Positions 7,493 through 30,362 of a stretch of 64,000 nucleotides of DNA are shown here, one piece after another. Under the pieces are notes generated by a model that did not search any database, was not told where the DNA came from, and was given only the letters and a program-made list of their open reading frames with translations. Position 1 is the stretch's first letter, and the number at the start of each line of letters is the position of its first letter. The stretch is taken from the IMG/VR virus record IMGVR_UViG_3300045988_006728. One strand, 5' to 3'. Made by a program: the position numbers and the translations under genes. This DNA comes from a virus. Its lineage: Duplodnaviria > Heunggongvirae > Uroviricota > Caudoviricetes.

Positions 7493-8968
7493 GTGAGAAG
7501 AATGGCAGATATTACAGAAACACAAGAAAGCTTACCACCATTTAGGATGGGTGAAGTAGGTTCTTTGGGTCTGAAGGTTAAGAATGGAAGAATCTATGAA
7601 GAACCTCGTCAGGCACTAAGGTTCCCTGAAAGTATTAAAACTTTCCAATTAATGATGCGTGACCCCGCTGTAGCAGCATCTGTAAATATTATTAAGATGT
7701 TTGTCAGAAAAGTCAACTGGAGATTCGTACCTCCAAAGGGAAAAGAGCAAGACCCTAAAATGCTTGAAAGAGCAGACTTCTTTAATTCTTTAATGGATGA
7801 CATGGAGCATGATTGGGCAGATTTTATTAACTCTGTAATGTCATTCTGCACTTATGGGTTCTGTGTTAATGAAAAGGTTTATAAGAAGCGTCAGGGTAAG
7901 AAAGGAAAGTACCAGTCTAAATTTGATGATGGTCTAATTGGATGGGCTAAATTACCAATCAGAAACCAATCAACACTTGATAAGTGGTATTTTGACGAAG
8001 ACTTTAGAAAAGTTACTGGTGTTAGACAGAATCTGAGAAATGTTTCACATATTGCTGGAGCAATTAATCTTGGAGAAAGACCACTAACAAGAAAACTCCC
8101 ACGAGCTAAATTCATGCTGTTTAAGTATGACGATGAATATGGAAACCCAGAAGGTCGTTCACCATTACTTAATGCCTATGTGCCGTGGAAGTATAAAGTT
8201 CAGATTGAAGAGTACGAAGCAGTCGGTGTTTCAAGAGACTTGGTAGGTATGCCAAAAATTGGTTTACCACCAGATTATCTGGATGAAAATGCAGAACCTG
8301 AAAAGAAAGCTTTCGTACAATACTGCAAAACTGTTGTTAACGATATGATTGCTAATGATAGAGCAGGTTTAATCTGGCCTAGATATATCGACCCAGATAC
8401 TAAAGAGGATATTTTTGAGTTCTCATTAGTTTCTAGACAGGGTGCTAAAGCATACGATACAGGTTCTATTATTGACAGATATTCCAAGCAGATTATGATG
8501 GCATTTATGTCAGATGTTCTTGCTATGGGTCAGTCAAAATATGGTTCATTCTCTCTTGCAGATTCTAAGACAAGCTTACTAGCAATGTCAGTAGATATTC
8601 TGCTGAAGCAAATTAAGAACGTAATTAACCGTGATTTAGTTGCACAGACTTATGCTCTTAATATGTGGGACGATGAAGAACATGTGCAAATCACATATGA
8701 TGATATCGAAACCCCAGACCTTGAAGTAATTGGTTCTTATATCCAGAAGACTGTTGCAGTAGGTGCTTTGGAAGTTGACAAAGAGCTATCTAACAAGCTT
8801 AGAGAGCATATTGGTCTTCCTCCTGCTGATGAGTCTCAGCCAGTATCTGAAAAGCTTTCTCCAAATAGCCAAAGCCGTTCAGGAGATGGTTATAAGACCG
8901 CTGGAGAAGGTACTGCAAAGACACCTTCAGCGAAAGACCCAAGCACAGCAAATAAGGCAAATAAATAA
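7493..8968 (+). CDS. Portal protein
   Basis: 491-aa ORF immediately after the terminase, acidic/Gly-rich C-terminus; call rests on position and size. Confidence 0.6.
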   Translation: MRRMADITETQESLPPFRMGEVGSLGLKVKNGRIYEEPRQALRFPESIKTFQLMMRDPAVAASVNIIKMFVRKVNWRFVPPKGKEQDPKMLERADFFNSLMDDMEHDWADFINSVMSFCTYGFCVNEKVYKKRQGKKGKYQSKFDDGLIGWAKLPIRNQSTLDKWYFDEDFRKVTGVRQNLRNVSHIAGAINLGERPLTRKLPRAKFMLFKYDDEYGNPEGRSPLLNAYVPWKYKVQIEEYEAVGVSRDLVGMPKIGLPPDYLDENAEPEKKAFVQYCKTVVNDMIANDRAGLIWPRYIDPDTKEDIFEFSLVSRQGAKAYDTGSIIDRYSKQIMMAFMSDVLAMGQSKYGSFSLADSKTSLLAMSVDILLKQIKNVINRDLVAQTYALNMWDDEEHVQITYDDIETPDLEVIGSYIQKTVAVGALEVDKELSNKLREHIGLPPADESQPVSEKLSPNSQSRSGDGYKTAGEGTAKTPSAKDPSTANKANK

Positions 8969-9468
8969 TGGCTGAAGTTATCTCTATTTCAAATGCTACA
9001 CGAGTGCATTCGTATAGAGGTGTTCTTATTATCACTGACAAATTATCTGTAGAGGCTGGCTCAAGGGTCAGCCTTTCAGGTTATGTAAGTGATGGTGGAA
9101 CCTCTGACGTTTTCACTATTTGCAGGTTACTTGATGCACCAATGAGTGGAAAACCGTTTATTTTAGGAAATTGTAGTGAAATTGTTAAAATTCCATTTGA
9201 CAGTTCATGCCTTTTGGGTGTAAAGTTATATAACTGCGAGAATAAACGTATCAATGTTAATAGCATTGAAGCCGCTTTCATTACCCTCGACACTGCATTT
9301 CAATCTCCAATGACAGTTAATAAAGAAACAAACAGACTTGAATACATTTTTTCACAAAATGATTACAAAGTACTTGTCAAAGGCAAAGTATATGATATGA
9401 TTGTAAATGTGGTAGATGAATCTGGTAACCATTCAACAGTCCTTAAACAAAAAGTAAGGTTTAATTAA
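8968..9468 (+). CDS. Hypothetical head-module protein
   Basis: 166-aa ORF, start overlaps portal stop. Confidence 0.4.
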   Translation: MAEVISISNATRVHSYRGVLIITDKLSVEAGSRVSLSGYVSDGGTSDVFTICRLLDAPMSGKPFILGNCSEIVKIPFDSSCLLGVKLYNCENKRINVNSIEAAFITLDTAFQSPMTVNKETNRLEYIFSQNDYKVLVKGKVYDMIVNVVDESGNHSTVLKQKVRFN

Positions 9469-9800
9469 TGGGAACATTAACTATTGATGGTAAGAATAAA
9501 ATCCTCGCCACGCTAACCCCAACGACTATTATTTTACACAATGTAGACCCAACGGCAGACCCTACAGCAAATAAGGTTACTCAGCCAGTGGCTATTTATT
9601 TTTCTGAACCGGATAATGGCTTAATTGCCTCAGAAGATACAGTTAATATTACTGTTCCAGCTTCTGCAACGGTCTCACACTATAGCTTGTGGGATGCTAA
9701 CGATAAATGCGTGGCAACTGGTGCTCTTAGCAAACCTCAATTCTTCGCTGAAGAAGGTATCTATGTTATCTCTTCAGTCTCTGTAGATTTAAACAAATAG
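9468..9800 (+). CDS. Hypothetical head-module protein
   Basis: 110-aa ORF, start overlaps previous stop. Confidence 0.4.
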   Translation: MGTLTIDGKNKILATLTPTTIILHNVDPTADPTANKVTQPVAIYFSEPDNGLIASEDTVNITVPASATVSHYSLWDANDKCVATGALSKPQFFAEEGIYVISSVSVDLNK

Positions 9801-9811
9801 GGTGAGTAAAA

Positions 9812-11158
9812 ATGAGTTCGAATATCTTCAGACTTGCTGATAGATTATTCAACCAACCTTTACTAGCCACTGAATCATTAGCTCACTCAGCAGCAACTTA
9901 TGTGAATAACAGATTGCTGGGTGATGTCCAAGCAGCAGTAAACTTTGATAAACCCAAAGGTGAAGCAAGAAGTCTTTTAAAAGTGAAAGATGACATTGCT
10001 ATTATCCCTATTATGGGTGGTTTAACCCATCGTATGACATTCATTGATGCAATGTGTACAGGTGGATTAAGCTCTTATGAAGGTTTGCGTAGAGGCTTTG
10101 ACGAAGCTTTAGCAGATGAGTCAATCAAGACTATTGTTCTGCACATCGATTCTGGTGGTGGTGAAGCTTCAGGTTGCTTTGAATTAGCACGTCACATTAT
10201 GGCTTCAAGAGGCCAAAAGAAAATTATTGCTTATGTAGATGAGTTCGCTTGTTCCGCTGCATACGCTCTTGCATCTTCTGCTGAAGAAATTATTGCATCA
10301 CCAGATGCAGATGTTGGTTCTATCGGTGTAATCATGGTTCATCAGGAATTAACTAAGGCATTTGAAAAGAATGGCGTAACAATTAACGTCATCAAAGCTG
10401 GTGAGTTTAAAGGTATGGGTTCACCATTCCAAGCACTCTCAGAAGAAAGCAAAGAAAGACTTCAAAAGAGAATTAATGATACCTACGCAACCTTTACAGG
10501 TTTTGTAGCTGAATCTCGTAATCTCTCTGAAGAAGCTGTAAAGAATACTGAGGCGAATGTTTATTCTGCTCAGGAAGCTCTTGAACTTGGTTTAATTAAC
10601 TCAATCATGTCTCAAGATGATTTCTTAAATTACTTACAAGGTTCTGAAGAGGCTCCTGTAAGTTTAAACGTTAACAATTCAGGTGAAGAAATGACTGAAC
10701 AAGAAAAGCAAGAACTAGAAGCTTTGCGTCTTCAGGTTGCTCAAATGAAAGCTAAAGAACAGGAAGCTGCTTTGTCAGATTTGACTAATAAGATTTCTGC
10801 TTCTGCTGAAGCTTTTGGATTTGATGCAAAAGAAGCTGCAACGACTATTTTAGGTGCTGGTCTTGATAACCCTCTGAGTGTTCTGTTTATGAATGCTATG
10901 GAAGGTGCTAACCAGAAACTTAATGAAACTATCGCGTCCCATGCTTCTGCAATGGAAGAAAAAGAATCAGAAATTACCAAGCTGAAAGAAACTGCTGGTG
11001 CTGTTCTTGAACATTCTAATGCTATGGAAGAAATGGGTAATGACGGCGAAGCTGATTTGGTTGAAGAAGAAAAAGAACCAGCTAAGAATGCTTCCGAAGA
11101 CACCGCTGAACAACGCAAACTGGCTCTCCAGAATGCTCTAAAATCTCTTATCAAATAA
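9812..11158 (+). CDS. Prohead serine protease (S49/ClpP-like) fused to a scaffold-like C-terminal domain
   Basis: IVLHIDSGGGEASG motif in the N-terminal half; C-terminal 150 aa are Ala/Glu/Lys-rich and coiled-coil-like. Confidence 0.6.
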   Translation: MSSNIFRLADRLFNQPLLATESLAHSAATYVNNRLLGDVQAAVNFDKPKGEARSLLKVKDDIAIIPIMGGLTHRMTFIDAMCTGGLSSYEGLRRGFDEALADESIKTIVLHIDSGGGEASGCFELARHIMASRGQKKIIAYVDEFACSAAYALASSAEEIIASPDADVGSIGVIMVHQELTKAFEKNGVTINVIKAGEFKGMGSPFQALSEESKERLQKRINDTYATFTGFVAESRNLSEEAVKNTEANVYSAQEALELGLINSIMSQDDFLNYLQGSEEAPVSLNVNNSGEEMTEQEKQELEALRLQVAQMKAKEQEAALSDLTNKISASAEAFGFDAKEAATTILGAGLDNPLSVLFMNAMEGANQKLNETIASHASAMEEKESEITKLKETAGAVLEHSNAMEEMGNDGEADLVEEEKEPAKNASEDTAEQRKLALQNALKSLIK

Positions 11159-25159: not shown

Positions 25160-26347
25160 ATGGCGGTAGGTGAAATTCAAATTAGTGCCTTGCCTCAAGC
25201 AGCCTTACCAATTGACCTTAGTGATATCTTCCATCTTAAGCAGGGTATTGAGGATAAGAGATGTACTCTTGAGCAATTACTTGCTCCACACTCAAGCCTA
25301 AGAAATAACCCTCATGGTGTTACTAAAACACAAATTGGTTTAGATAACGTTATCAATGCTCTTCAGTTAGTTGCTGCAAATAACTTATCAGACGTTACTA
25401 ATGTAGCTCAGGCAAGAGCAAATCTACAGATTATGTCTTCAGAAGAGGTTAATAATCTTGTTCAACAGCATATTCAGGACAAGAGCAACCCACATAATAC
25501 AACTAAGGTACAGGTAGGATTGAGTAATGTTCAGAACTGGACAACATCTAACCTTTATAACGAAGATGCAGATAAGTATGCTACAGCAAGAGCAGTAAAT
25601 AACTTGTACAAGGCTGTTCAGGCTTCCTATCCAGTAGGTACTATCCATCTTTCCATGAACTCTGCAAACCCTTCTACATATTTAATTTGTGGAGGAACTT
25701 GGGAGTTAGTTTCAAAAGGTAGAGCATTGGTTGGTTATGACTCTGATACAAGACCAACAGGCTCTGTATTTGGTGCTTCAACTGTCACTTTGTCAGTTAA
25801 TAACATGCCACAACACTCACACTCTGTGTCTCTTAGTGGTGGTGGTCACACCCATAATGCAACGGTGTCAATTTCAGCTTTTGATTATGGAACTAAGACT
25901 ACCAACTCTTTTGACTATGGAACAAAGACCACTAACACGACTGGTAACCACAACCATGTGGGCAGTGGGTCAACAAATGCGGCTGGTGCTCACAACCATA
26001 GATTGACCTATGAAGCAGGTGGTGGTTTATCGGAAAGACCTGCAATGGTTTGGTCTACAAGGAATGACCAATCATGGTACTCAGCAGATGCTGTCTGTGA
26101 AGTCGCTGGTTCACACACTCACTCTTTCAGTGTTACCACTAACACGACTGGTAACCACAGCCACACGGTTGGTATTGGTGCTCACAGCCACACGGTTGGT
26201 ATTGGTTCACATACACACAATGGTACTGTAACAGTTTCTTCTTCTGAGCATACGCATAGCGGGAACACTAACAGTATTGGTGGTGGACAAGCTTTTAACA
26301 TTGAGCAGCCATCCTTCGTACTGTATGTATGGCAGAGAACAGCTTAA
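25160..26347 (+). CDS. Tail fiber protein with His-X-His repeat tip domain
   Basis: 395 aa; repeated HTHS/HSHT motifs and in-frame tandem DNA repeats; C-terminal motif shared with the next gene. Confidence 0.65.
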   Translation: MAVGEIQISALPQAALPIDLSDIFHLKQGIEDKRCTLEQLLAPHSSLRNNPHGVTKTQIGLDNVINALQLVAANNLSDVTNVAQARANLQIMSSEEVNNLVQQHIQDKSNPHNTTKVQVGLSNVQNWTTSNLYNEDADKYATARAVNNLYKAVQASYPVGTIHLSMNSANPSTYLICGGTWELVSKGRALVGYDSDTRPTGSVFGASTVTLSVNNMPQHSHSVSLSGGGHTHNATVSISAFDYGTKTTNSFDYGTKTTNTTGNHNHVGSGSTNAAGAHNHRLTYEAGGGLSERPAMVWSTRNDQSWYSADAVCEVAGSHTHSFSVTTNTTGNHSHTVGIGAHSHTVGIGSHTHNGTVTVSSSEHTHSGNTNSIGGGQAFNIEQPSFVLYVWQRTA

Positions 26348-26393: not shown

Positions 26394-28781
26394 ATGGCAG
26401 ATTACAAGTTGAGTGAATTAAACTCAATCAATACAATCCGTTCAGATGACCTTCTTCATGTCAGAGTTAAAAAGAGACCTGAAATGCTGGGTGATGAAGA
26501 CCGTCGAATGACCTATCAAGACTTCTTAGCATCTTTTAAACTTGAAAGGTTTGTTCAGATTGCTGGTAGCACTATGACGGGTGACTTAGGAATTGTTAAG
26601 TTACTTTATGGTGGTAAGGTAGTATTTAACCCAACAGGCTCTTCTGAGATTACTATTGGGGATGTTTTAAAGACTTTTAAAATCAACGCAAACGGCCTTA
26701 GATTAACTATTGCAGATGCTTCAAGGTCGGCAACTGTTTATCATACTCTGAATAAGCCAAGCCCTAATGAGCTTGGGATGAGAACTAATGAAGAGAATGA
26801 TGCAAGATATGCAAGGTTGGCTGTAAATAACACCTTTAGAGGCACTCAAGCTATTCTCTCTGACAATGAAGCTCTTATTGCTAAGAATATTACACAAGGG
26901 ATGCCACTCTATATTCGTGGTCAAGATGCAGATGGTACTAACAGGTGGTATCTAGGTAATGATAACAAGGGTACAGACAATCTTGTTTTAAAAAACGTTA
27001 AATCTGGTGCATATGTAGCTATTTTAGCTAACCTAATCTCCGTGAACAAATCAATCCAAATCACTGGGCAAGTTCAACCTTCTGATTGGACTAACTTAGA
27101 TGCTAGGTATTTTACTCAGACAGCAGCTAATCAGAGGTTTGCACAGTTAGCTGGTAATAATACCTTTAGAGGCGTGAATACATTTAATCAAATCCTATCA
27201 ATTAAGACGAATAGTGCAGCCTTAAGGTTAAAAAACACTGTAGCTAATGGTGCACTGTACATTAAAGCCGAAGCTAATGATGGCTCTGGTAAGTGGTATG
27301 TAGGTAATGGTGATAATACACCTGCTGTATTAATCCACAACTATACGTATGGTTCTAATCTTAGACTCGACAATGGTTATGTTGAGGTTAATAAGCAACT
27401 TAAAGTCGTTGGTCAAGTTCAACCTTCTGATTGGACTAACATTGACTCTAGATATATTCCGGCAGGAACTTTGAGTAATCTTGCCAAGCTGAGTGATGCA
27501 AACACTTTCAGGTCTACACAGGTTATCAATCTGAATGGCTCATTGTTACAGCTAAAGAACACTACACAAGACAGAGAGCTTTACTTTGCTGGCCATAATG
27601 CTGATGGTGTTAGAAGGTGGTACATCGGTAATGGGGAACCATCCAACCCAACAAGATTTACTATCCGCAACGACAGAACTGCAACTACGCTTTATATGCA
27701 AGACGATTTCTTGTTGGATAAAACTGTCAGAATTACTGGTCAAGTTCAACCTTCAGATTTCTCTAACTTAGATGCTAGATATTTCTTAAAAACAAAACTG
27801 TTAAACCAATCTTTAATGACAAGGACAGCTAATAGACTGGATGACCCATCATCATTCAACAAAGATTGTTCAGGGTTTGTAAGAAACAACGCTATTGAGC
27901 AGGGTCTGAAAGATTTAGCCATCCATGTAGCACATTCTGCTGGTATTGCTCATGCCAGAGGTATTGCTTTTACATATGGGTCTAAAGGTCTTGATGTCTT
28001 CACATACGCTTATGGGTCAGATGGAGCATATGTTGGAGAGGCACAGTTGTATTCAACGGCATTTAAACCAACCCCTTCAGGTATTGGTGCATATACTAAA
28101 GCTGAAACTGACCAGAAGATTGCACAGGCAGTAAGTGACTCTACAGACCTTAATAAAATCTATCCAGTAGGTATTGTGACATGGTTTAACAGCAATGTTG
28201 ACCCTAATACAGCACTTCCTGGTCTAACTTGGACGTACCTGAACAATGGTGTTGGTAGAACTATCAGAATTGCAGCAGCAAACGGTTCAGATGTTGCTAC
28301 AACTGGTGGTTCAGATTCTGTAACGTTATCTGTTGGCAACTTACCATCACACACCCATAGTTTCTCTGCTACCACTTCATCTTTTGATTATGGTACGAAG
28401 AACACTAATAGCACTGGTGGTCATACTCACTCTGTAAGTGGCACAACAAGTGCTGCTGGTAAACACGCTCACCACTTAGGTCTGCTATTGGTTAATGGTG
28501 GTGATGCTCAGTACGGTTATACAACTGTTAGCAATAACAAGACGAGAACTCTTGACTGGCTTGACAGAACTGATAACAAGTTCCCTAACACTAACACAAC
28601 TGGTAACCATACACACACATGGTCTGGTACTACAAGTAACACTGGTGCTCACACCCACTCTGTAGGTATTGGTGCTCACACCCATACAGTTAGGGGTAAC
28701 ACTGGTGGTACAGGTTCTGGTTCAGCATTTAGTGTCACTAACCAGTTCTACAAGTTGATGGCTTGGGTGAGAACTGCTTAA
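26394..28781 (+). CDS. Long tail fiber protein with three internal repeats and His-X-His tip domain
   Basis: 795 aa; three roughly 100-aa repeats each containing NTFR...DG..RWY.GN...QVQPSDW(F)...LD(A/S)RY; C-terminal HTHS repeats. Confidence 0.7.
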
Positions 28782-28859: not shown

Positions 28860-29057
28860 ATGCCTACAATCCTAGCAATTCTTCTAAAAAATCTAGGTAG
28901 CTTCTTCTGGAAACTCATTTTATCCCTTCTAAGTGAATACATGATTGAGAAAGTGTTCTTTAGGCTTGCAAGATACCTTGCGAGTAAAACAGACACACCT
29001 ATTGATGATGAGTTCGTAGATAACTTAGAAAAAGCTTTTAAGGGGGAGAATAAATGA
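28860..29057 (+). CDS. Small hydrophobic protein (holin-like candidate)
   Basis: 65-aa ORF with a hydrophobic N-terminal segment at the end of the late operon. Confidence 0.35.
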   Translation: MPTILAILLKNLGSFFWKLILSLLSEYMIEKVFFRLARYLASKTDTPIDDEFVDNLEKAFKGENK

Positions 29058-29425
29058 AGTGGCTAGAGGAAGCTTTTAAAAATAATATTGGTGCAATTGT
29101 AGTTGGTATTTTTAGTGTTATTGGGATGTTTACCACGATGCAAGTTTCAAGTGGTAAACAAGAAGTGTCTGTCACAACAAAGTTACAGCAGCTAGATAAT
29201 TATTCCAAAAGTAACTATTCAGCTATTCGTGATTTACAGTCTGACATGAGACTGATTCAGCTAGGGATGGAGAACCAGAAAGTTCAGTTAGAGAATGTTA
29301 AGGGTGAAAACGCAAAACTTACCAAAACTCTTGATAAATTCTCTGACAGTGTGAATAATCTGGCTCAATCAGTATCAGCCCTCCAAGCTATTACTGAAAA
29401 GAACACAAAGAATACTGAAAAATAA
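29054..29425 (+). CDS. Membrane-anchored coiled-coil protein (spanin- or holin-like candidate)
   Basis: 123-aa ORF with one N-terminal TM helix (IGAIVVGIFSVIGMFTT) and a helical C-terminus. Confidence 0.35.
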   Translation: MKWLEEAFKNNIGAIVVGIFSVIGMFTTMQVSSGKQEVSVTTKLQQLDNYSKSNYSAIRDLQSDMRLIQLGMENQKVQLENVKGENAKLTKTLDKFSDSVNNLAQSVSALQAITEKNTKNTEK

Positions 29426-29430
29426 AGTTT

Positions 29431-29461
29431 AAGGCTCCTTTTTACGGGAGCCTTTTTTGTT
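29431..29461. terminator. Bidirectional rho-independent terminator
   Basis: aggctcc-tttttacg-ggagcct with T-runs on both sides, between convergent operons. Confidence 0.6.
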
Positions 29462-29462
29462 T

Positions 29463-30362
29463 TTACTTGCCTACTGACAGAGGTGCTTCAATCTTTCCTG
29501 CATGTTGGTAGTTGTTAATGCCACCAATAAAATCACTTGCAGTAAGATGTTTCAGGTCACTTAAAGTATTAAGTGGTAGACCAATCTCAAAAGTTGGTGC
29601 ATGGAACTCTTCATTGTTCAGTAGTTCATAAACCTGTTTCATGTGGTTCTGATAAATCTGAGTATCTCCAAAGACACCTATCAAGTACCGTGGAGTGTAT
29701 CCAGTCATCTTACAAAGAACTTCCAGAATAAAACCATAAGATGCAATATTAAACGGGAGTCCTAAAAAGGTGTCTACTGAACGCTGATACCATTGTAAGT
29801 CAACTTCACCCTCGTTAGTGATATAAATCTGAAACAGAACATGACAAGGTGCTAAAGCCATTGAGTTTGCTGCAATATCTGCTGCATTCCAAGCATTAAC
29901 AAGCATGTAACGGTCTGTGATATCACCCTTCATCTTCGTTACTAAGGTCTCTAGTTGGTCTACAACACAGCCATTATGACCTTCAAAGTTTCTCCACTGA
30001 ACCCCATAGATTCTTCCACCTGCATCCTCTAACCAATCTTGTTCAGAAGAATAATTAGAGCTTAACCAGCGTTTAAAATCATCTGACCAGATAGTCCAGC
30101 GTTCTCCGTCATTTTCACCCCAAGTACGGTAACGAAGTTCACCAAGCTTATTCTCGCCATTCAGGAACCATAAAGCTTCCCCAATAACTTGCCGTGTAAA
30201 CACCTGTTTAGATGTTAAGAGCGGGAAACCAGTTCGCATATCAAAACGAAACTGAGGTGGAGCAAATGCAGATATAACATCTCCAGTTCGTGTAGTACGC
30301 AGTTCACCAACGGATAAAACATGGTTCAGGATATTTTTGTAACTTGTATCTGCTTGTGACAT
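29463..30362 (-). CDS. thyA: Thymidylate synthase
   Basis: 299 aa; N-terminal TRTGDV...FDMRTGFPLLTSK and active-site LAPCH motif. Confidence 0.85.
   Translation of the reverse strand: MSQADTSYKNILNHVLSVGELRTTRTGDVISAFAPPQFRFDMRTGFPLLTSKQVFTRQVIGEALWFLNGENKLGELRYRTWGENDGERWTIWSDDFKRWLSSNYSSEQDWLEDAGGRIYGVQWRNFEGHNGCVVDQLETLVTKMKGDITDRYMLVNAWNAADIAANSMALAPCHVLFQIYITNEGEVDLQWYQRSVDTFLGLPFNIASYGFILEVLCKMTGYTPRYLIGVFGDTQIYQNHMKQVYELLNNEEFHAPTFEIGLPLNTLSDLKHLTASDFIGGINNYQHAGKIEAPLSVGK

Follow-up and report, generated by a model that had tools for sequence, protein, structure and literature searches.

Tandem PF20744 shaft modules in the long tail fibre of a Felix O1-like phage and their probable exchange as cassettes between conserved joints

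The long tail fibre (LTF) encoded in the window, by which we mean the whole stretch of 64,000 nucleotides analysed, contains three consecutive modules that very probably represent one known trimeric unit of fibre shafts (Pfam PF20744), repeated in tandem within a homotrimeric Felixounavirus fibre whose module bodies are exchanged between relatives as cassettes bounded by short conserved joints. The repeat itself is already known, being a catalogued Pfam domain drawn in two cryo-EM studies (Bas63 and Sf14), and alone it adds nothing new; what may be useful is an answer to a point left open by the authors of those structures, namely why the shaft domains of Felixounavirus LTFs vary as much as the receptor-binding tip. 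This variation would come from exchange of whole bodies between joints and not from missense drift, with synonymous sites saturated inside the bodies and nearly untouched outside them. The features discussed are the following:

25160..26347, + strand: short tail fibre gene (395 aa), matching Pfam Gp10_C only and PHROG 2097
26394..28781, + strand: LTF gene, an intact ORF of 795 aa
26394..26792, + strand: N-terminal baseplate-binding region and first, non-repeat shaft domain (aa 1-133; domain assignment following PMC12609058)
26793..27122, + strand: repeat module R1 (aa 134-243), PF20744, similar to the T7 gp17 pyramid domain
27123..27467, + strand: repeat module R2 (aa 244-358), with a 6-aa insertion after NTFRG
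27468..27794, + strand: repeat module R3 (aa 359-467), matched by PF20744, BLASTP and the module HMM
27795..28148, + strand: fifth shaft domain (aa 468-585), a putative swappable cassette with a marginal match to PF12604 (gp37_C)
28149..28781, + strand: T4 gp37-like receptor-binding tip, consisting of collar (Gp10_C), HxH needle and head, with a match to PDB 2XGF

The label of long tail fibre given to this gene in the initial annotation holds, as PHROG 4277 (tail fibre) aligned to it over its full length (1-795 against 1-780, E=0), its DNA is 96.4% identical to that of Felixounavirus NRG857CP1 (up to 96-97% against Felixounavirus LTF genes in general), and the gene order at the locus is identical to that in the annotated relatives VpaE1, FelixO1, wV8, SUSP2, Sf14 and Mordin (baseplate wedge, small ORF, short fibre, LTF, small ORF, holin-like gene, then convergent thyA and DHFR). 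Full-length homology and genomic position thus both place the protein among the Felixounavirus long tail fibres, and the phage carrying it is, to judge from these comparisons, a Felix O1-like Felixounavirus. The counterparts of the LTF are Bas63 gp27, Sf14 gp53, Felix O1 ORF184 and VpaE1 gp75, the first two being long fibres of 630 Å (PMC12609058, PMC11821841). The adjacent short fibre ends in a tip of the same kind but lacks PF20744 modules, so that it can be used as an internal control for their contribution; its Bas63 counterpart, gp26, is 430 Å long (PMC12609058). A scan for promoters and terminators within the LTF gene gave nothing exceeding the shuffled expectation.

A triplicated module of about 100 residues had been proposed for the entire span 26394-28781. 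The triplication is real and far above chance in pairwise BLASTP, in searches with an HMM built from the three modules and in three separate PF20744 matches, but the measured period is slightly longer (109-115 aa, with a unit of about 112 aa, or 327-345 nt in DNA) and the repeats are confined to nt 26793-27794, the original span being that of the whole gene. Compared with one another by BLASTP, the modules are 35-42% identical over 105-109 residues (E 3e-27 to 9e-22), and each module searched against the rest of the LTF with itself masked matched only the other two (E 6e-19 to 2e-24). The self-alignment suggested as a check therefore does show significant internal repeats, although splitting and masking were needed, since self-BLAST on the whole LTF returned the trivial self-match alone. 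The HMM found exactly three copies in the LTF and no significant fourth. All three motif types named at the outset occur three times: NTFRG at aa 146 and 256 with NTFRS at aa 370, DG..(R/K)WY.GN at aa 180, 296 and 404, and GQVQPSD..N.D.RY at aa 225, 340 and 449; the second copy has KWY and not RWY, and all three have DG.

The assignment to PF20744 (gp37_trimer), which is also present in all relatives checked, is strong: the score of 192.2 bits exceeds the cut-off of 21.7 (E 1.4e-57), and three stretches are matched. As a single sequence the LTF reached 4A0U at E 2.4e-3, covering aa 284-345, while a profile of 51 modules matched residues 366-436 of T7 gp17 (4A0T, 4A0U, 7BOZ) at E 6.5e-8, with a weaker match (E 4e-3) to Mu fibre S (5YVQ). 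An AlphaFold monomer model of aa 225-378 (R2), obtained from a 35-row alignment of paralogs and orthologs (the full-length single-sequence model had a pLDDT of only 30), gave a body with pLDDT of 75-95 and five β-strands, with short helices on both sides. In Foldseek its top four matches were 4A0U and 4A0T chains (T7 gp17 371-553) with probability 1.00, rmsd of 1.6-2.3 Å and 31-33% identity over 64-70 columns. On this profile and model evidence, the module is homologous to the T7 gp17 pyramid domain in sequence and in predicted monomer-chain fold. The T7 domain is an intertwined trimeric β-layer ahead of a helical linker (PMC11680406), and the Bas63 and Sf14 maps (PMC12609058, PMC11821841) suggest that the modules are likewise trimeric and intertwined. 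The likeness has its bounds: the T7 alignment is limited to the β-body of about 70 residues, with the GQVQPSD joint aligning with Mu fibre S (QVIPGNYANFDSRY), and in T7 gp17, as in the fibres of Mu, P2 and lambda type that were checked, a single copy (occasionally two) stands just before the tip, whereas the LTF has three in a row, after which come a further domain and a tip of T4 and not T7 type.

These results fit what has been described for relatives, whose 630 Å LTF has unexpectedly variable β-domains with helix-and-turn motifs between them (PMC12609058, PMC11821841, PMC4690856); T7 gp17-like and Mu gp49-like domains were reported in Sf14 gp53 (PMC11821841). The Bas63 authors counted five 'β-helix repeat domains' and likened them to T4 gp34 (PMC12609058), a rod in which, as in the LTF, repeated trimeric β-domains with short helix-and-turn motifs build a long stiff shaft. 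Kinship with the gp34 rod repeats was supported neither by profile search nor by fold search: gp34 (5NXH) gave no match to the module profile at E ≤ 1 and does not appear among the 50 best PDB matches listed by Foldseek. One gp34-like protein (P0068, PF21446 Gp34_trimer) has weak PF20744 matches, which lie outside the crystallised part, and only analogy or a very distant relationship remains. Published structures thus count five structural repeat domains, of which three are interrelated at the sequence level; a fourth or fifth related repeat was sought in aa 45-133 and 468-585 with the module HMM (and hhalign for domain 1) and none was found. Comparison of the domain-1 and module profiles by hhalign gave no similarity except for a shared boundary peptide, ENDARYARL.

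Outside the modules, the aa 1-133 region is conserved, its nucleotide identity lying mostly at 82-100% in comparison with 10 Felixounavirus LTFs. The fifth shaft domain, which when excised (aa 468-585) matches PF12604 at 25 bits in this allele, is 18-48% identical in nucleotides to that of ASO1B, FelixO1, wV8 and phiWec177 and about 100% identical to that of NRG857CP1 and LF82P2; the FelixO1 allele matches the Mu fibre 8JU3 (E 1.6e-23). The tip matches PDB 2XGF at E 4.2e-20 over aa 641-774 and contains six HxH motifs (aa 653, 677, 691, 739, 753 and 762), the number also reported for the Bas63 LTF (PMC12609058), while its head (aa 685-750) is variable among Felixounavirus LTFs.

The motifs noticed at the outset, NTFRG and GQVQPSD..N.D.RY, are joints conserved in both protein and DNA, which is a new point. 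They occupy the following positions:

26808..26843, + strand: left joint of R1 (aa 139-150), direct-repeat family D5
27138-27173 and 27480-27515, + strand: paralogous copies of the left joint (D5)
27060..27110, + strand: right joint of R1 (aa 223-239), direct-repeat family D1
27405-27455 and 27732-27782, + strand: paralogous copies of the right joint (D1)

Copies of the right joint have 74-80% nucleotide identity over 70 nt and include an exact 27-nt repeat (at 27069 and 27414); in FelixO1 the exact repeat between paralogous joints is 33 nt long. Of the 12 invariant degenerate positions in the right joint, 7 have identical codons where 2.8 would be expected (P=0.009); this excess is confined to this joint, is modest in size and could stem from selection at the mRNA level instead of gene conversion. 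In the paralogous bodies, all-identical codons occur at 4 of 18 invariant degenerate positions (4.0 expected), with a pairwise identity of 0.44 against 0.44 expected. Synonymous sites in these bodies thus agree no more often than at random, which makes the triplication ancient; the internal duplication proposed earlier is therefore borne out as an old event, and the same test rules out both a recent duplication and concerted evolution acting on entire modules.

Comparison of the window with 10 Felixounavirus LTFs indicates that the bodies, domain 5 and the tip head are swapped independently as cassettes among near-identical phages, with breakpoints at the joints, which is likewise new. Sliding nucleotide identity is 30-60% in the bodies and mostly 76-100% in the joints. 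At conserved residues, swapped bodies have identical codons in 24-53% of cases, where about 44% would be expected at random, and the joints and other unswapped segments in 64-100%, mostly 75% or more. Per-codon maps place left breakpoints at or just after NTFRG and right breakpoints at the GQVQPSD joint, so that the divergence switches are sharp and independent, include synonymous sites and have their boundaries at conserved motifs. In the module tree each position holds several deep allelic types that assort independently: R1 of the window is 97% identical in amino acids to that of NRG857CP1 and only 25-57% to other allelic types, while R3 is 98% identical to that of LF82P2, its body being 25-33% identical to those of Z31, VpaE1 and FelixO1. 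The architecture of conserved N-terminus, three PF20744 modules, domain 5 and T4 gp37-like HxH tip is common to Felixounavirus and Mooglevirus LTFs, from which that of the window differs only in its combination of alleles (R1 of NRG857CP1 type, R2 of VpaE1 type and R3 of LF82P2 type).

Recombination between the His-box or GXHXH motifs of gp37-gp38 has reportedly been described by Tétart et al. for the distal fibre genes of T-even phages, where, likewise, divergent segments lie between short motifs of conserved DNA, at which crossovers exchange them among related phages. The two systems differ in that the T-even swapped part is the tip adhesin, with an experimental link to host range, whereas in the LTF it comprises shaft modules and the evidence is comparative only.

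In each unit, a body of about 75-85 aa, built of β-strands and containing the DG..(R/K)WY.GN turn, lies between a left joint (A-x-L-x-x-x-N-T-F-R-G) and a right joint (GQVQPSD..N.D.RY) predicted to form short helices and turns. Placed in series, the bodies would be the beads of a rod that keeps the N-terminus, which binds the baseplate, apart from the T4 gp37-like HxH tip; they would build shaft length and hold the three chains in register. When two phages infect one cell, homologous recombination at the joints would bring about the exchange, and out-of-register pairing of joints may give rise to variants with four or five modules. The same points, after NTFRG and before GQVQPSD, offer natural splice sites at which chimeric fibres could be engineered, in phages of a group that serves in Salmonella diagnostics and biocontrol, and the effect of shaft modules on host range becomes directly testable through swaps of single cassettes.

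Whether the bodies do more than build the shaft is a separate matter. In line with the added binding sites suggested earlier, they may be auxiliary adhesins that bind glycans laterally along the shaft (O-antigen or LPS core), with triplication multiplying the sites and swapping retuning host range, a reading that we regard as possible but rather unlikely. It is one of the three possibilities listed by the Bas63 authors (PMC12609058), and Ounavirinae are known to recognise LPS or O-antigen by a mechanism still unresolved (PMC8594841). Few parts of the genome, which is otherwise >90% conserved, vary as much as the bodies, and these equal the receptor-binding head in variability; the maintenance and independent reassortment of deep allelic types is a pattern of specificity determinants, and hypervariable swapped bodies are compatible with a surface under diversifying selection. 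Nevertheless, no binding pocket and no lectin- or adhesin-type family was found in aa 134-467, for which Pfam gives a trimerization domain only, the modules are distant from the distal tip, and the homologous T7 pyramid domain gained no substitutions under host-range selection in an evolution experiment (PMC6962156). In addition, FelixO1 (from Salmonella) and wV8 (from E. coli O157) have a common R1 type (89% identity), so allele type does not obviously track host.

A broader version of this idea, which we put forward only tentatively, is a combinatorial system of five slots (the three modules, domain 5 and the head of the tip) in which the joints are crossover sites and the shaft bodies help in host recognition. 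Each slot would hold one of several ancient alleles, and the built-in crossover sites would be NTFRG on the left and GGT CAA GTT CAA CCT TCT GAT on the right, with in-register crossovers reshuffling alleles and out-of-register ones changing the copy number from three to four or five. The bodies might then make, for example, side-on contacts with O-antigen or LPS, so that shaft and tip would both be specificity determinants in Felix O1-like phages.

Appreciably less probable is that the bodies are seen by something other than a receptor, either because a defence sensor of the host targets them (third among the hypotheses of PMC12609058) or because they dock on the tail sheath when the fibre is folded back, in which case swapping would represent escape or co-adaptation. 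Both fibres do run along the sheath in Bas63 and Sf14 virions (PMC12609058, PMC11821841), but sheath identity is only slightly reduced (PMC12609058), which makes it improbable that the sheath co-varies with fibre bodies as divergent as these; sensing of a PF20744-type domain is not known for any defence system, and the window offers nothing bearing on either version.

Relaxed constraint, in which shaft β-domains tolerate missense changes and drift faster than the joints with neither recombination nor selection, was the first hypothesis offered for Bas63 (PMC12609058), and a fold with only about 8 invariant columns in the alignment of 51 modules does tolerate much change. As the source of body variability it is nonetheless very improbable, being contradicted by the fractions of identical codons, which within the same gene pair are 24-53% in swapped bodies against mostly 75-100% in adjacent joints; such unequal synonymous divergence within one gene requires different histories. 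One and the same pair, NRG857CP1 and the window, is 95-99% identical in two of the bodies but 36% in the remaining one, and the transitions are sharp and located at joints. Since synonymous sites are saturated in the bodies and the joints are conserved, accumulation of missense changes is disfavoured as the cause of the variability noted in Bas63, and cassette exchange remains our preferred reading.

A recent tandem duplication or an assembly artefact, suggested by the tandem layout and the near-constant period of 327-345 nt, can be dismissed, as it is refuted by the low protein identity of the paralogs (just 35-42%), by their random-level synonymous sites and by a module tree in which position-specific lineages are common to Felixounavirus, Suspvirus and Mooglevirus.

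Module number was also compared across relatives, as had been recommended. A homologue search with the repeat region returned 34 proteins, mostly fragmentary and below 600 aa, and the counts were taken instead from a representative search and a phage collection. In the latter, 266 records were matched at 768 places, the listed Ounavirinae isolates having three places each apart from one record with two; four and five modules were seen in metagenomic sequences only. The five-module protein (P0035, 1015 aa) and the four-module one (P0036, 901 aa) are encoded on syntenic metagenomic contigs of 77-87 kb, the former on one contig from one sample and the latter read on 3 contigs. The longest exact internal repeat in the five-module gene is 23 nt, which makes a repeat-induced assembly chimera unlikely. 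Judging by these two syntenic relatives, the copy number can vary in the lineage and fibre length, by extension, can vary too and is probably not fixed.

The earlier suggestion that the modules may set fibre length receives indirect support from their position in the shaft, from the 430 Å of the module-less short fibre compared with the 630 Å of the long one, and from the four- and five-module relatives; the difference between fibres with and without five shaft domains would correspond to roughly 40 Å per module. A pure spacer role alone leaves the maintenance of deep allelic body types unexplained. The extra modules in the five-module relative resemble R1, with two of them showing 72-73% DNA identity when aligned to R1 of the window.

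The long tail fibre (LTF) gene occupies one reading frame of the window:

26394-28781, + strand: LTF ORF, single and intact, 795 aa

Its protein aligns over the full length with PHROG 4277 'tail fiber protein' (E=0), its DNA matches 234 phage records, with identity of up to 96-97% to the counterpart gene in Felixounavirus genomes, and its neighbourhood (baseplate protein, 100-aa ORF, 395-aa fibre, LTF, small ORF, holin-like ORF, convergent thymidylate synthase and DHFR) has the Felix O1-type arrangement. In its C-terminal third, aa 641-774 are matched by the receptor-binding tip of T4 gp37 (2XGF, E 4e-20), and six HxH motifs are found in the C-terminal tip. By cryo-EM, the counterparts Bas63 gp27 and Sf14 gp53 make up the 630 Å fibre, the longer of the two sets, and the 395-aa gene upstream encodes the 430 Å one (PMC12609058, PMC11821841). 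On these grounds the name 'long tail fiber' used in the initial annotation is correct.

The triplicated module described in this protein is confirmed, and by sequence comparison the repeat is genuine, far beyond chance: the pieces aa 130-243, 244-358 and 359-467 are 35-42% identical to each other over ~105-109 residues (E 3e-27 to 9e-22), each of them in a self-alignment with itself masked matches only the other two (E 6e-19 to 2e-24), and an HMM made from the three recognises just three domains in the LTF protein (134-243, 245-357 and 359-467) and no significant fourth. These modules (R1, R2 and R3) carry the expected motifs, NTFR(G/S) as NTFRG at aa 146 and 256 and NTFRS at aa 370, and (I/V)(T/V)GQVQPSD(W/F)(T/S)N(L/I)D(A/S)RY at aa 225, 340 and 449, which we refer to as the left and right joints of a β-stranded body. 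The D(G/A)..RWY.GN segment is present at aa 180, 296 and 404, but the middle copy reads KWY. The proposed module length of 100 aa has to be replaced by a measured period of 109-115 aa, and the repeats, although contained in the ORF to whose whole span they had been assigned, cover only nt 26793-27794, ~40% of it.

The module is already known: it is a Pfam family, and structures published for close relatives show it. The family, PF20744 'Tail fibre protein gp37 trimerization region', covers the three repeats in three stretches with a score of 192 bits (cut-off 21.7). From 16 LTF genes of Ounavirinae type, 51 modules were aligned into a profile; among all PDB sequences, it matched T7 fibre gp17 residues 366-436 (4A0T, 4A0U, 7BOZ; E ~7e-8) and Mu fibre protein S (5YVQ, residues 354-442; E 4e-3), the QVIPGNYANFDSRY stretch of the latter aligning with the GQVQPSD..N.D.RY joint. 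A single-sequence AlphaFold model of the full-length LTF was not usable (pLDDT 30); the model used covers aa 225-378 (joint, R2, joint), was built from an alignment (35 rows) of modules, both paralogs and orthologs, and has a body of five β-strands (pLDDT 75-95) with short helices on its flanks. Its four best Foldseek matches in the PDB were T7 gp17 371-553 chains (probability 1.00, rmsd 1.6-2.3 Å over 64-70 columns, 31-33% identity); in T7, the chains of this 'pyramid' domain intertwine into a trimeric β-layer, after which comes a helical linker (PMC11680406). The Bas63 fibre has been described as five 'β-helix repeat domains' spaced by 'triple α-helix and turn' motifs and likened to the T4 gp34 rod (PMC12609058); at the sequence level, however, only three of the five are mutually related, and the T4 gp34 crystal fragment was matched neither by the 51-module profile in the PDB nor among the 50 best Foldseek matches listed.

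Since the module is present once or twice in many unrelated fibre types, including those with P2/Mu-type N-termini, those with lambda gpK-type assembly domains and one gp34-like protein, it is a generic shaft and trimerization element. A very long T4-like distal fibre protein of Aeromonas phages, annotated gp36 in phage 31, has a single copy (34% identity to R1, E 6e-5), and a gp34-like representative protein (P0068) has two weak ones, which may point to a remote relationship in sequence between PF20744 and the shafts of T-even fibres.

The best supported reading makes the modules trimeric shaft beads, set between the gp37-like tip and the baseplate-binding end, that would lengthen the fibre and hold its chains in register. 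That they add binding sites, as proposed initially, seems unlikely: Pfam and PHROG searches detected no binding-type family, the T7 homologue gained no substitutions under host-range selection (PMC6962156), and one R1 type is common, at 89% identity, to a Salmonella phage and an E. coli O157 phage. It retains some plausibility from the persistence and reassortment of ancient alleles at positions whose variability equals that of the receptor-binding head, and from the Felix O1-type receptor mechanism, which is still unresolved (PMC8594841).

In the left joint and body, 18 positions have the same degenerate amino acid in all three paralogs, and the codons are all identical in 4 of them, the number expected from window codon usage being 4.0; the triplication is thus old, and the internal duplication proposed for these paralogous units stands as an old event. 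When R1 was searched by tblastn against 50,697 phage records, 266 records were matched at 768 places. Among the matches listed, Ounavirinae (Felixounavirus, Suspvirus, Mooglevirus) have three places per record with one exception, and other phages just single weak copies; these counts agree with the repeat number reported as invariant among recognised Felixounavirus species (PMC12609058). The exception, Salmonella phage S19cd (MZ150758.1), has two places; its fibre may truly have two modules, or the third may be very divergent or disrupted by a frameshift. When 1.84 billion representative proteins were searched exhaustively with a profile, longer fibres came up, encoded on Ounavirinae-like metagenomic contigs:

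L016 (Logan SRR22802239), 8001-11048: fibre gene with five full modules, 1015 aa
L017 (ENA ERZ28599557), 8001-10706: fibre gene with four modules, 901 aa

Both contigs (77-87 kb) have the gene order of the window. The five-module gene is known from one contig, ~71% identical to the window in aligned parts of the DNA; its three extra modules are of R1 type, two of them aligning to window R1 at 72-73% DNA identity, and the gain per extra module is ~110 residues. These syntenic relatives, which are one increment of the present analysis, indicate that copy number can change in the LTF lineage. The suggestion that module duplication sets fibre length is therefore plausible, copy number being variable as a length-setter would allow, and the 630 Å and 430 Å fibres would imply a step of ~40 Å per domain.

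Codon-by-codon comparison with ten Felixounavirus LTF genes revealed a mosaic. Nucleotide identity is mostly 82-100% in the N-terminal 135 residues and 76-100% around GQVQPSD...NTFRG, and falls to 30-60% in the bodies of R1 (aa ~150-222), R2 (~254-338) and R3 (~373-446), in domain 5, the shaft domain after R3 (~467-560), and in the tip head (~685-750), these drops being independent of one another. NRG857CP1 departs from the window essentially only between aa 260, just past NNTFRG, and aa 340, just ahead of GQVQPSD. In Z31 the R3 body accounts for most of the divergence, R1 being moderately changed (77% amino-acid identity). In LF82P2 the divergent parts are R1 and R2, and identity is ~100% from aa 359 onward, up to the stop. 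The module tree has several deep allelic types per position, the window combining an R1 of NRG857CP1 type (97%), an R2 of VpaE1 type (94%) and an R3 of LF82P2 type (98%). Synonymous sites served as the key control: at residues that both proteins conserve, identical codons amount to 24-53% in swapped bodies, the random level, against 64-100% (mostly >=75%) in the neighbouring joints and the remaining unswapped segments of that gene pair, so that different parts of one LTF gene have different histories. This argues for recombination, or cassette exchange, between DNA-conserved joints as the source of body variability, a further increment of this analysis together with the recognition that the motifs noted initially are such joints, and against tolerance to missense mutation, the first of three hypotheses offered for shaft-domain variability in PMC12609058.

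The joints are also repeated DNA within the gene:

27069-27095 and 27414-27440: exact direct repeat of 27 nt, in the joints after R1 and R2

Its counterpart in FelixO1 is an exact repeat of 33 nt, and in the right joint the paralogs have identical codons at 7 of 12 positions against 2.8 expected from codon bias (P=0.009). With repeats of this size, exchange in register is plausible, as is out-of-register exchange at paralogous joints, which would change copy number, with the 27-nt repeat as a possible substrate for unequal crossing-over.

Domain 5 (27795-28148, aa 468-585) is likewise a cassette that is swapped, and at least three allelic types of it exist. PF12604 gp37_C is matched strongly by the FelixO1/SUSP2/Sf14 type and at only 21-25 bits by the window type; the domain of FelixO1 is homologous to Mu fibre S/S' (8JU3 residues 329-426, E 1.6e-23), and those of wV8 and phiWec177 have a longer, different insert, giving LTFs of 844-848 aa, still with three modules.

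The short tail fibre (395 aa, 25160-26347) has nine HxH motifs and a tandem pair of FDYGTKTTN decapeptide motifs (aa 241 and 251). The pair is ten residues apart also in wV8 and Sf14, Mordin has two copies twenty residues apart, and VpaE1, FelixO1 and both metagenomic relatives have one; from these differences, small duplications may alter the length of the needle. At 29431-29454, in the gap separating the convergent holin-like ORF (29054-29425, +) from thymidylate synthase (29463-30362, -), is a G+C-rich hairpin that has T-runs on both strands and coincides with a sign change in GC skew; it looks like a bidirectional intrinsic terminator.

Some database entries with Felix O1-type modules have unlikely host labels, namely 'Staphylococcus phage SA1' and a 'Staphylococcus hyicus' protein (P0011), probably host mislabels or contaminating phage DNA and not true host jumps; the unverified 'Campylobacter phage A123' (Drexlerviridae) has one weak copy (28% identity). 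GU169904.1 and MG065669.1 are the R1 tblastn matches so labelled. Database homologues of the repeat region (P0001-P0034) are nearly all truncated fragments of <600 aa, many from Shigella, Salmonella or E. coli draft assemblies, which suggests that short-read assemblies often break the LTF gene and that DNA of Felix O1-like phages is a common component of bacterial sequencing runs.
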